This document shows, one piece after another, positions 28,912 through 28,961 of a stretch of 64,000 nucleotides of DNA. The DNA is from a virus, in IMG/VR virus record IMGVR_UViG_3300005613_000045, positions 1 through 64,000 of that record. The stretch is one strand, 5' to 3'. How positions within the stretch are numbered: the stretch's first letter is position 1; the number at the start of each line of letters is the position of its first letter. The notes under the pieces were generated by a model. The model made no database searches and was not told the origin of the DNA. It saw only the letters and a list, made by a program, of their open reading frames with translations. Position numbers and translations under genes: made by a program.

Positions 28912-28961
28912 TACTCTAAAGAAAATTTTATGAGGGCCAATAAAATATTTGGAGGGCTATT

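Follow-up and report, generated by a model that had tools for sequence, protein, structure and literature searches.

The pairing of a hairpin loop or an upstream segment with the strand that carries a Shine-Dalgarno (SD) sequence is a feature of the preQ1-II and SAM-II riboswitches, the Min Jou interaction between the coat and replicase genes of phage MS2 and the Escherichia coli rpmI-rplT system, in which the next ribosome-binding site (RBS) becomes accessible or not depending on a ligand or on whether another cistron is being translated. In Firmicutes, the RNAIII hairpins and RsaE/RoxS have C-rich apical loops (UCCC/CCCC) which nucleate pairing with the G-rich SDs of several mRNAs. STAB-SD 5′ stabilisers, examples being those of Bacillus thuringiensis cryIIIA and phage SP82, are selected to pair with 16S rRNA. 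In icaR of Staphylococcus aureus, a C-rich anti-SD-like motif (UCCCCUG) in the 3′ untranslated region, downstream of the stop codon, pairs with the gene's own SD region and blocks it, preventing the initiation complex and creating an RNase III substrate (PMC3868564). Pyrimidine-rich anti-SD (aSD)-like 8-mers, which bacterial genes deplete, repress in vivo by long-range RBS pairing, an effect that is modulated by neighbouring structure (Gill et al., bioRxiv 2025; PMC12697547). Here, we describe a related arrangement in a phage. The 64,000-nucleotide stretch analysed (the window; positions 1 to 64,000 of IMG/VR virus record IMGVR_UViG_3300005613_000045) possesses, between a gene for a 492-aa virion protein and a 195-aa gene, a conserved hairpin whose loop is anti-SD in sequence, an SD-like sequence dedicated to pairing with it (site 1) and a true SD (site 2) that is also complementary to the loop, and all three co-evolve. 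Site 1 is a copy of the motif GAGGGCC, flagged by a first-pass annotation as a possible regulatory signal at operon boundaries; to judge from its conservation pattern, it is probably one strand of a conserved RNA-RNA pairing on late mRNA, acting as an anti-SD/SD switch which would set downstream translation.

Like icaR, the phage element has a C-rich anti-SD motif downstream of a stop codon. However, its partners are the SD of the next cistron and, at a distance of just 15 nt, a dedicated SD-like decoy, and the motif is displayed in the apical loop of a long hairpin, with a pseudoknot topology, in a late operon; the phage element is also known from sequence alone. With the aSD-like 8-mers it would share the pyrimidine-rich sequence, the long-distance pairing with an RBS and the modulation by local structure, but in this clade of phages one such sequence is conserved, exposed in a loop and accompanied by a neighbour that matches it. 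Unlike the loops of the C-rich small RNAs, that of the phage is part of an operon mRNA, on which its best partner is also found. Site 1 resembles a STAB-SD in being SD-like, untranslated, upstream of a real RBS and the start of no open reading frame (ORF); it differs in that it appears to be selected for pairing with its own loop and often loses the GGAGG core. In comparison with the SD-sequestering pseudoknots, no ligand pocket or protein partner is evident, and the main partner is a decoy and not an SD. The anti-SD loop lies about 30 nt past the stop codon and therefore beyond the reach of a terminating ribosome, although in two more distant relatives (L012 and L034) the anti-SD hairpin is only 6-7 nt past the stop. 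Full-text literature searches for related work returned no description of such an element in phages, and we know of no conserved, co-evolving three-part module (anti-SD loop, SD-like partner and true SD) described in a phage late operon. Sequestration of an RBS by complementary RNA is well known; an anti-SD-loop pseudoknot module with a dedicated decoy is, to our knowledge, a new form of it.

Hairpin S1 and its two partner sites

Hairpin S1 (28860-28916) lies 3 nt past the stop codon that ends the 492-aa gene and forms a nearly perfect stem of approximately 20 bp, ranking second by strength among the inverted repeats of the window. The 111-nt intergenic RNA has a minimum free energy (MFE) of -42.3 kcal/mol (z = -5.49). 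The 3′ part of the S1 apical loop is an anti-SD mimic (UGGCCCUCCUG), and a reverse-complement copy of the motif (GGCCCTC, 28887-28893) lies in this loop, 45 nt upstream of the flagged site (Table 1). Loop segment UGGCCCUC is exactly complementary to site 1, which makes eight Watson-Crick pairs with the loop (TGGCCCTC) in a duplex of -16.9 kcal/mol. Site 2 (GGAGGGCU) starts 12 nt past site 1, and the GCCCUCC of the loop is complementary to it. The AATTTTAT that the first-pass annotation had placed ahead of its motif is this window's version of an A/U-rich linker between hairpin and site 1.

The arrangement is that expected of a classical H-type pseudoknot, whose helices would stack coaxially. 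No more than 3 nt (0-3 nt) separate the anti-SD segment from the 3′ arm in any of the phages, with 0-8 nt in the 5′ part of the loop, and by our own reckoning the linker would have about the length needed to span a 20-bp stem. On the late mRNA, the geometry suggests that the loop pairs with site 1, giving the pseudoknot, or alternatively with site 2, and site 1 may be the preferred partner which keeps the anti-SD loop off the real SD. A three-way competition between loop:site 1, loop:site 2 and 16S rRNA:site 2 pairing could then set the frequency of initiation on the downstream gene, the outcome being the expression, in either direction (ON or OFF), of this low-copy gene relative to the upstream structural gene. 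The module would be a mutationally testable case of a phage setting a large expression ratio of adjacent structural and assembly genes without separate promoters and, at approximately 105 nt, it is a compact and portable part for translation tuning in synthetic operons.

The same features could be read in terms of mRNA processing or stability, with the hairpin as an RNase III site or as a 3′-end stabiliser (partial terminator) of the upstream mRNA, site 1 as a STAB-SD-type 5′ stabiliser bound by 30S subunits and protecting the processed downstream mRNA, and the loop complementarity secondary. A nearly perfect stem of about 20 bp has the size of an RNase III substrate, the A/U-rich linker resembles endonuclease-prone single-stranded RNA, and site 1, an SD-like sequence that precedes the true SD and has no start codon of its own, agrees with the definition of a STAB-SD. 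While a U-tract directly follows the hairpin in one relative (L002, TTTTTGTGT), none is found in the window or in most relatives, and we consider this explanation unlikely, also in view of the drift of site 1 described below. As regards an intrinsic terminator as such, the window hairpin is followed by TAAAGAAAATTTT and is not called a terminator by the scan; that candidate was rejected because L002 alone has a U-tract.

Further candidates were considered and rejected. A small ORF from ATG 28930 which overlaps site 1 is without an SD and is kept only in L103. A second anti-SD, the internal sense-strand GCCCTCCTG at 26912, is not conserved in the 92%-identical relative L093. For hairpin-stimulated stop-codon readthrough or frameshifting, the downstream frame meets a TGA after nine codons, and no slippery heptamer was seen by eye before the stop. 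No Rfam family matched the element at gathering or permissive thresholds; the search gave two tRNAs, and only chance miRNA-like matches on the hairpin.

Table 1. Coordinates of the element, of the loop-matching sites and of selected genes in the window
Feature	Position	Strand	Sequence	Remarks
5′ arm of hairpin S1	28860..28880	+	GAGTATCAGTCTGATAGATCC	Folding; covariation over 11 phages
Apical loop (16 nt)	28881..28896	+	TGAGATGGCCCTCCTG	Anti-SD segment TGGCCCTCCTG (28886-28896) adjoins 3′ arm
3′ arm of hairpin S1	28897..28916	+	GGATCTATCAGACTGTACTC	Folding; covariation
A/U-rich linker (15 nt)	28917..28931	+	TAAAGAAAATTTTAT	Includes AATTTTAT; loop 3 of the proposed pseudoknot
Site 1 (flagged motif)	28932..28939	+	GAGGGCCA	SD-like, without usable start; 15 nt past hairpin
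Site 2, true SD of 195-aa gene	28951..28958	+	GGAGGGCT	ATG 28962; loop pairing 7 bp plus G-U, -20.9 kcal/mol
SD of 785-aa multi-domain glycosyltransferase gene	23538..23545	+	GAGGGCCA	ATG 23550; 8-nt loop match
SD of 73-aa gene	41106..41114	+	AGGAGGGCC	ATG 41120; 9-nt loop match
SD of 83-aa gene	48234..48242	-	AGGAGGGCC	ATG 48228; 9-nt loop match
SD of 358-aa PD-(D/E)XK nuclease gene	53167..53176	-	AGGAGGGCCA	ATG 53165; 10-nt loop match, best in window
SD of 232-aa glycosyltransferase gene	18449..18456	+	AGGAGGGC	ATG 18461; 8-nt loop match
Loop-matching site with no start codon after it	42191..42199	+	GAGGGCCAT	15 nt past last late-operon stop; 9-nt loop match
Large terminase	11359	+		
Glycan-modification cluster	18461-25907	+		Followed by structural genes
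492-aa BNR/beta-propeller virion protein gene	27378-28856	+		TAA stop 28854..28856
195-aa gene, presumed tail assembly chaperone	28962..29549	+		ATG 28962; synteny, function inferred
Tape measure	29793	+		
Dit-like gene	32682	+		

Covariation of the loop with sites 1 and 2

Relatives were found via homologues of the 492-aa protein in metagenomes and IMG/VR, which gave more than 160 loci (numbered with the prefix L), while single-protein IMG/VR scans returned one distant locus for the 492-aa protein and none for the helicase. Among 105 distinct regions downstream of the 492-aa gene homologues, 63 are shorter than 50 nt, and the complete module is retained in about 20 of those that are longer; there, the stop is followed by the long hairpin with its C-rich loop, then the A/U-rich linker, sites 1 and 2 and the start. 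These uncultivated phages span 45-91% protein identity and 39-72% G+C, and their arm sequences largely differ; the hairpin is predicted in every relative. The linkers (14-21 nt, with 44 nt in L091) are A/U-rich even at 50-55% G+C and unrelated in sequence, and sites 1 and 2 are 13-30 nt apart. Site 1 is without a start codon in the relatives and frequently without the first G of GGAGG. The more distant relatives L012 and L034 follow the same logic with other sequences and a nested topology, L012 having loop UUACUCCUU against AAGGAGUA(A) at two sites and L034 having UUUUCCUCCUUUA against UAAAGGGGGAAAA. It is worth mentioning that in L043, also more distant, GGAGGGCC lies in the first 80 nt past the stop of the 492-aa homologue and forms the 5′ arm of a post-stop hairpin (GTGGAGGGCCAG / CTGGCTCTCCAC), thus pairing in a stem instead of with a loop; this could represent an intermediate stage in the evolution of the module.

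At least nine different loop:site 1 variant pairs were identified (Table 2), several of which lose the GGAGG core of site 1 yet stay complementary to the loop.

Table 2. Variants of the loop and of site 1 in the phages carrying the module
Phages	Loop	Site 1
Window, L103, L002, L108	GGCCCTCC	(G)GAGGGCC (GGAGGGCC)
L003	GAGCCCTCCTG	CAGGAGGGCTC
L004, L090	GACCCTCCTG (L004 loop also written GACCCTCC)	CAGGAGGGTC (partner of GACCCTCC: GGAGGGTC)
L087, L092, L094	GTGGCCCTCC	GGAGGGCCAC
L104	TAGGCCCTCC	GGAGGGCCTA
L102	GGCCCTCG	CGAGGGCC
L105	CTCGCCCTC	GAGGGCGAG
L008	TTGGCCCCC	GGGGGCCAA
L135	CGCCCTCC	GGAGGGCG
L091	GCAGCCCTC	GAGGGCTGC

With loops defined manually, the longest duplex between a loop and site 1 averages 8.63 nt within a phage and 6.94 nt with the site 1 of other phages, and for site 2 the corresponding means are 8.05 and 7.08 nt; in both comparisons none of 100000 permutations reaches the observed value. 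In an alignment of 16 sequences, loop:site 1 pairing shows double changes at six pairs (12 cells), with a covariation score of 0.219 against 0.126 in shuffles (0 of 500 reaching the observed score), while slid controls score 0.01-0.07, that is 3- to 18-fold lower. For loop:site 2, four pairs (nine cells) have double changes and again no shuffle out of 500 reaches the covariation score; 7-10 bp can form in all 16 aligned phages, and RNAalifold predicts this helix unaided. The misaligned rows from MAFFT (L100, L102 and L105) were dropped from later alignments, and L099 and other poorly aligned rows stand outside the set of 11 well-aligned phages that was used for the whole pseudoknot. In that set, 83.8% of the cells of its 31 pairs are paired, 21 pairs and 47 cells are compensatory, and the covariation score is 0.446 against 0.205 in shuffles, none of 500 reaching it; slid controls score 0.09-0.18. 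Within stem 1, 16 of the 20 pairs have changed on both sides. Since loop and partner have mutated together in about 20 phages, the data point to an RNA pseudoknot tuning translation rather than to a promoter.

The variants also bear on the STAB-SD proposal. Site 1 drifts away from the 16S-complementary core (CGAGGG, AGAGGG, AGGGGG, GAGGGCGAG) yet stays perfectly complementary to the loop, which is the opposite of what a stabiliser predicts. Variants such as CGAGGGCC, AGAGGGCTG, AGGGGGCC and GAGGGCGAG do not show the constraint for 16S pairing expected of a STAB-SD, and this reading of site 1 fails because the site tracks the loop and not the CCUCC core.

A number of points weigh against the proposed cis-acting switch. 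The sequences are phylogenetically related, and the shuffle and permutation counts therefore overstate independence, even though many different variant pairs are present. The upper-stem alignments are imperfect, with helix 2 only 68.7% paired in the alignment of 11 sequences, and in L009 and L097 the hairpin is present but a clear site 1 or the C-rich loop is missing. In L091, L100 and L135 the 5′ segment of the loop is 0-1 nt, which is awkward for a second helix of 7-9 bp unless the top of the hairpin frays, and the nested MFE structure of the window does not need the loop:site pairing. Finally, a model restricted to action in cis leaves it unexplained that other genes, including two from the opposite strand, have SDs with the same extension.

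Copies of GAGGGCC and the AATTTT flank

GAGGGCC occurs seven times in the window against 2.25 expected, and none of 100 shuffles reaches seven. The first-pass annotation had quoted four sequences, all of which are present, with exact coordinates for the one at 23528-23552 and a shift of 1-4 nt for the other three. They had been taken for the only GGGCC-containing sites of this type, whereas the window has 17 GGGCC (27.4 expected) as well as three minus-strand GAGGGCC, two being the SDs of minus-strand genes (48234 and 53168) and one lying in the hairpin loop (28887). The rarity of GGGCC as such (17 against 27.4) contrasts with the local enrichment of GAGGGCC and is possibly due to restriction-site avoidance (GGNCC/GGCC type). 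The view that the motif always lies in intergenic DNA ahead of late gene groups does not hold either: the copies at 23538 and 41108 are in ordinary SD positions, in gaps of 18-20 nt within operons, that at 42191 is inside the 3′ end of the convergent helicase ORF and that at 28932 precedes no start codon.

Four GAGGGCC copies are SDs on the coding strand, 2-5 nt before the start codons at 23550, 41120, 48228 (-) and 53165 (-). A GGAGG-like core 4-12 nt before a start is present at 23538, 41106, 48242 (-), 53176 (-), 18449 and 28951, and is not found in such a position at 28932 and 42191. GAGGGCC(A) is the sole conserved stretch upstream of the 785-aa glycosyltransferase (GT) gene in four phages (the window, L002, L007 and L099), and the orthologues of the 232-aa GT gene in L002 and L007 have (G)GAGGGCC as their SD. 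The site at 42191 overlaps a non-conserved C-terminal tail of the helicase ORF. In L085 (L004 phage; approximately 11615-11632, minus strand), GAGGGTC, the variant of the loop complement which this phage has, overlaps the stop with which its last late gene ends, at the helicase convergence point, in parallel with 42191 of the window; this is a match of only 7 nt and may be due to chance. Of the functions that had been suggested for the motif, an extended RBS comes nearest, as four copies are real SDs lengthened at their 3′ end by GCC(A), but this extension gains no pairing with a generic 16S rRNA.

It would be very improbable, in our judgement, that these are ordinary SDs with GAGGGCC as a favoured variant, the loop copy and the AATTTT flank being coincidental. 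Four of the seven copies do hold plain SD positions, GGAGG-type SDs dominate the genome, so that GAGG words are enriched anyway, and GCCCTC as such is not enriched. Chance does not, however, explain an extension without extra pairing to the generic 16S tail, a site 1 without a start codon, the retention of complementarity with other sequences in L012 and L034, or the covariation of loop, site 1 and site 2 in about 20 phages, by which this reading already appears disfavoured.

AATTTT lies 12-14 nt 5′ of the motif at four of the six sense-strand GAGGGCC sites, against a background of 0.46% of positions, and therefore that half of the first-pass motif is non-random in this genome. Among the 67 SD-led starts it is found at two, both of them GAGGGCC sites. 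AATTTTA is missing at the orthologous sites in L103 (in which the flanking protein is 91% identical), L002, L007 and L099. An identical 12-mer (ATGAGGGCCAAT) is present at 23536-23547 (the SD of the GT gene) and 28930-28941 (site 1), with AATTTT before each, suggesting intragenomic copying or a shared flank requirement behind this window-specific association.

A signal at the level of DNA, be it a phage late promoter or activator-binding site, as had been suggested, or a recombination linker at gene boundaries, would provide for the recurrence of the motif at gene starts and for AATTTT beside four copies in the window, and a double-stranded site, which reads alike both ways, could accommodate the inverted copy at 28887. 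Nevertheless, the functional copies are mRNA-sense, on the coding strand at a fixed SD distance from the start, and the AATTTT flank is not kept in the four relatives named above. A promoter scan of the window, covering the sigma-70 type only, gave 35 hits against 55.5 expected, with none convincing at the four sites and no hexamers beyond chance there. The sole antisense copy is in the loop of a hairpin whose arms covary without conservation of sequence, which indicates a folded single strand. We therefore give a DNA-level signal hardly any credence.

Lengthened Shine-Dalgarno sequences of other genes

Outside the hairpin module, six sites match the loop over 8-10 nt, five of which are SDs of other genes and one of which (42191) is not an SD. 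The matches to the loop complement CAGGAGGGCCAUCUCA are of 10 nt at 53176 (-), 9 nt at 41106, 48242 (-) and 42191, and 8 nt at 23538 and 18449. Their duplexes with the loop have energies of -17 to -22 kcal/mol, against -12 to -13 kcal/mol for ordinary SDs. With a generic bacterial 16S 3′ tail (GAUCACCUCCUUUCU), used in place of that of the host, the same sites give -6 to -13 kcal/mol and gain nothing from GCC(A), whereas in pairing with the phage's own loop the extension doubles the energy. It is found at four SDs, where we estimate that about 0.25 would be expected by chance. As the other GAGGGCC SDs bear the same 3′ extension, the same loop could pair with them.

Across the phages, a number of other genes have SDs that fit the loop of the same phage over 9-11 nt, a hint of action in trans. 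The SDs of two other genes in L004 (loop GACCCTCCTGA) are TCAGGAGGGTC and CAGGAGGGTC, GGAGGGCCAC is found at two more genes in L087 and at one more in L094 (both with loop GTGGCCCTCC), and loop-matching SDs of other genes are also found in L002 (AAGGAGGGCCA) and L007 (TGGAGGGCCA). At the orthologous SD of a tail gene of approximately 120 aa, L002, L007, L087 and L094 have GGAGGGCC(A/AC), and L004, with loop GACCCTCC, has GGAGGGTC. The 5′ flanks of these SDs track the loops as well (AAGG in L002, TCAGG in L003 and L004, TGG in L007). A matrix of genomes by loops favours the own loops, and out of 50000 permutations its trace is reached by 48 with a threshold of 8 nt, by 231 with 9 nt and by 211 with 10 nt.

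These findings raise the possibility, which we hold tentatively, that the loop is a riboregulator acting in trans (or in cis over kilobases) to throttle the translation of a set of genes with lengthened SDs, namely glycosyltransferases, small tail genes and a nuclease. The hairpin would either accumulate as the stable 3′ terminus of the mRNA of the structural gene or be processed free, and site 1 would be a built-in antidote on read-through transcripts. The strong duplexes of the five other-gene SDs and of 42191, the better fit of a phage's other SDs to its own loop than to foreign loops, and the agreement of L002, L004, L007, L087 and L094 with this pattern argue for it. Against this, L003 and L008 deviate, with other SDs that are GGAGGGCA, TA, AT, AC, or GGAGGGCC against a GGCCCCCC loop, and neither L085 nor L088 keeps those sites that lie on the replication side of the window. 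A separate stable RNA is unsupported; a canonical U-tract after the hairpin is found in L002 only. In the pseudoknot, moreover, the loop would be occupied by site 1. Because of the deviation of L003 and L008, the small number of independent events and the confounding of the permutation test by phylogeny, action of the loop on other SDs is a serious possibility and not a result. If the matching extensions on other genes do mark real targets, this would show that a virus can create a private SD/anti-SD code.

A more elaborate and rather doubtful form of this idea would make the loop an anti-SD "address reader" which, on the stable 3′ hairpin of the most abundant late mRNA, pairs in trans with a private SD extension. 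The extension of 3-5 nt (GGAGG-GCCA here, GGAGG-GTC in a relative) would be a barcode marking a low-copy regulon on both strands, made up of glycosyltransferases, minor tail genes and the nuclease; loop and barcodes would co-evolve, and site 1 would be a decoy that buffers the loop. If true, this would amount to virus-specific control of translational dosage, orthogonal to the anti-SD of the host ribosome.

Genome context

The window is a segment of a phage genome with 39% G+C, and DNA similarity searches against 50,697 GenBank phages found no relative in near or distant mode. A host search among genome contigs returned only phage contigs binned in metagenome-assembled genomes. Genes are on the plus strand up to approximately 42176 and on the minus strand from 42179, the latter side coding for an SNF2 helicase, DNA polymerase, primase and the PD-(D/E)XK nuclease. 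Most genes of the window have a strong GGAGG-type SD.

The 492-aa protein is a putative virion structural protein in the position of a major tail protein. Its AlphaFold model (predicted local distance difference test 76) is confident for the C-terminal propeller only, which has BNR/Asp-box motifs and four conserved cysteines, while the N-terminal 150 residues are disordered or beta-rich in the model. In BFVD it matches generic propeller proteins or proteins named "outer capsid". Metagenomes hold at least 180 members of the family, many of them annotated as "photosystem II stability/assembly factor-like".

The 195-aa gene is presumed to encode a tail chaperone because a short out-of-frame ORF and the tape-measure gene come next. 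The 195-aa ORF (28962-29549) is followed by a 55-aa ORF in another frame (29611-29778) directly before the tape measure, and in L005 the corresponding ORFs overlap. From the layout alone, this resembles the G/GT programmed-frameshift pair of tail chaperones.

The glycan-modification cluster lies between the head and tail modules and, in the window, has the 232-aa GT, methyltransferase-like genes and the 785-aa protein with three GT domains. The clusters of relatives (L004, 1-8472; L087, 660-8422) add a sulfotransferase, APS kinase, UDP-glucose dehydrogenase, epimerase and HNH endonuclease, which suggests enzymatic decoration, possibly with sulfated glycans, of the virion or host surface.

The helicase orthologue of the L003 phage (protein P0125, L086 10001-12685) has 894 aa compared with 540-549 aa in the window and the other relatives, suggesting the insertion of an intein- or HNH-like element; HNH or intein-related Pfam matches are present in other homologues, which measure 832-908 aa. 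The phage also encodes a tRNA-Thr (tgt; 6483-6554, plus strand) and a tRNA-Leu (taa; 44413-44496, minus strand). Two perfect hairpins with 4-nt loops are present at 18410-18441 (14 bp) and 56277-56314 (17 bp), the former sitting between a 484-aa gene and the GT gene with SD AAGGAGGGC.

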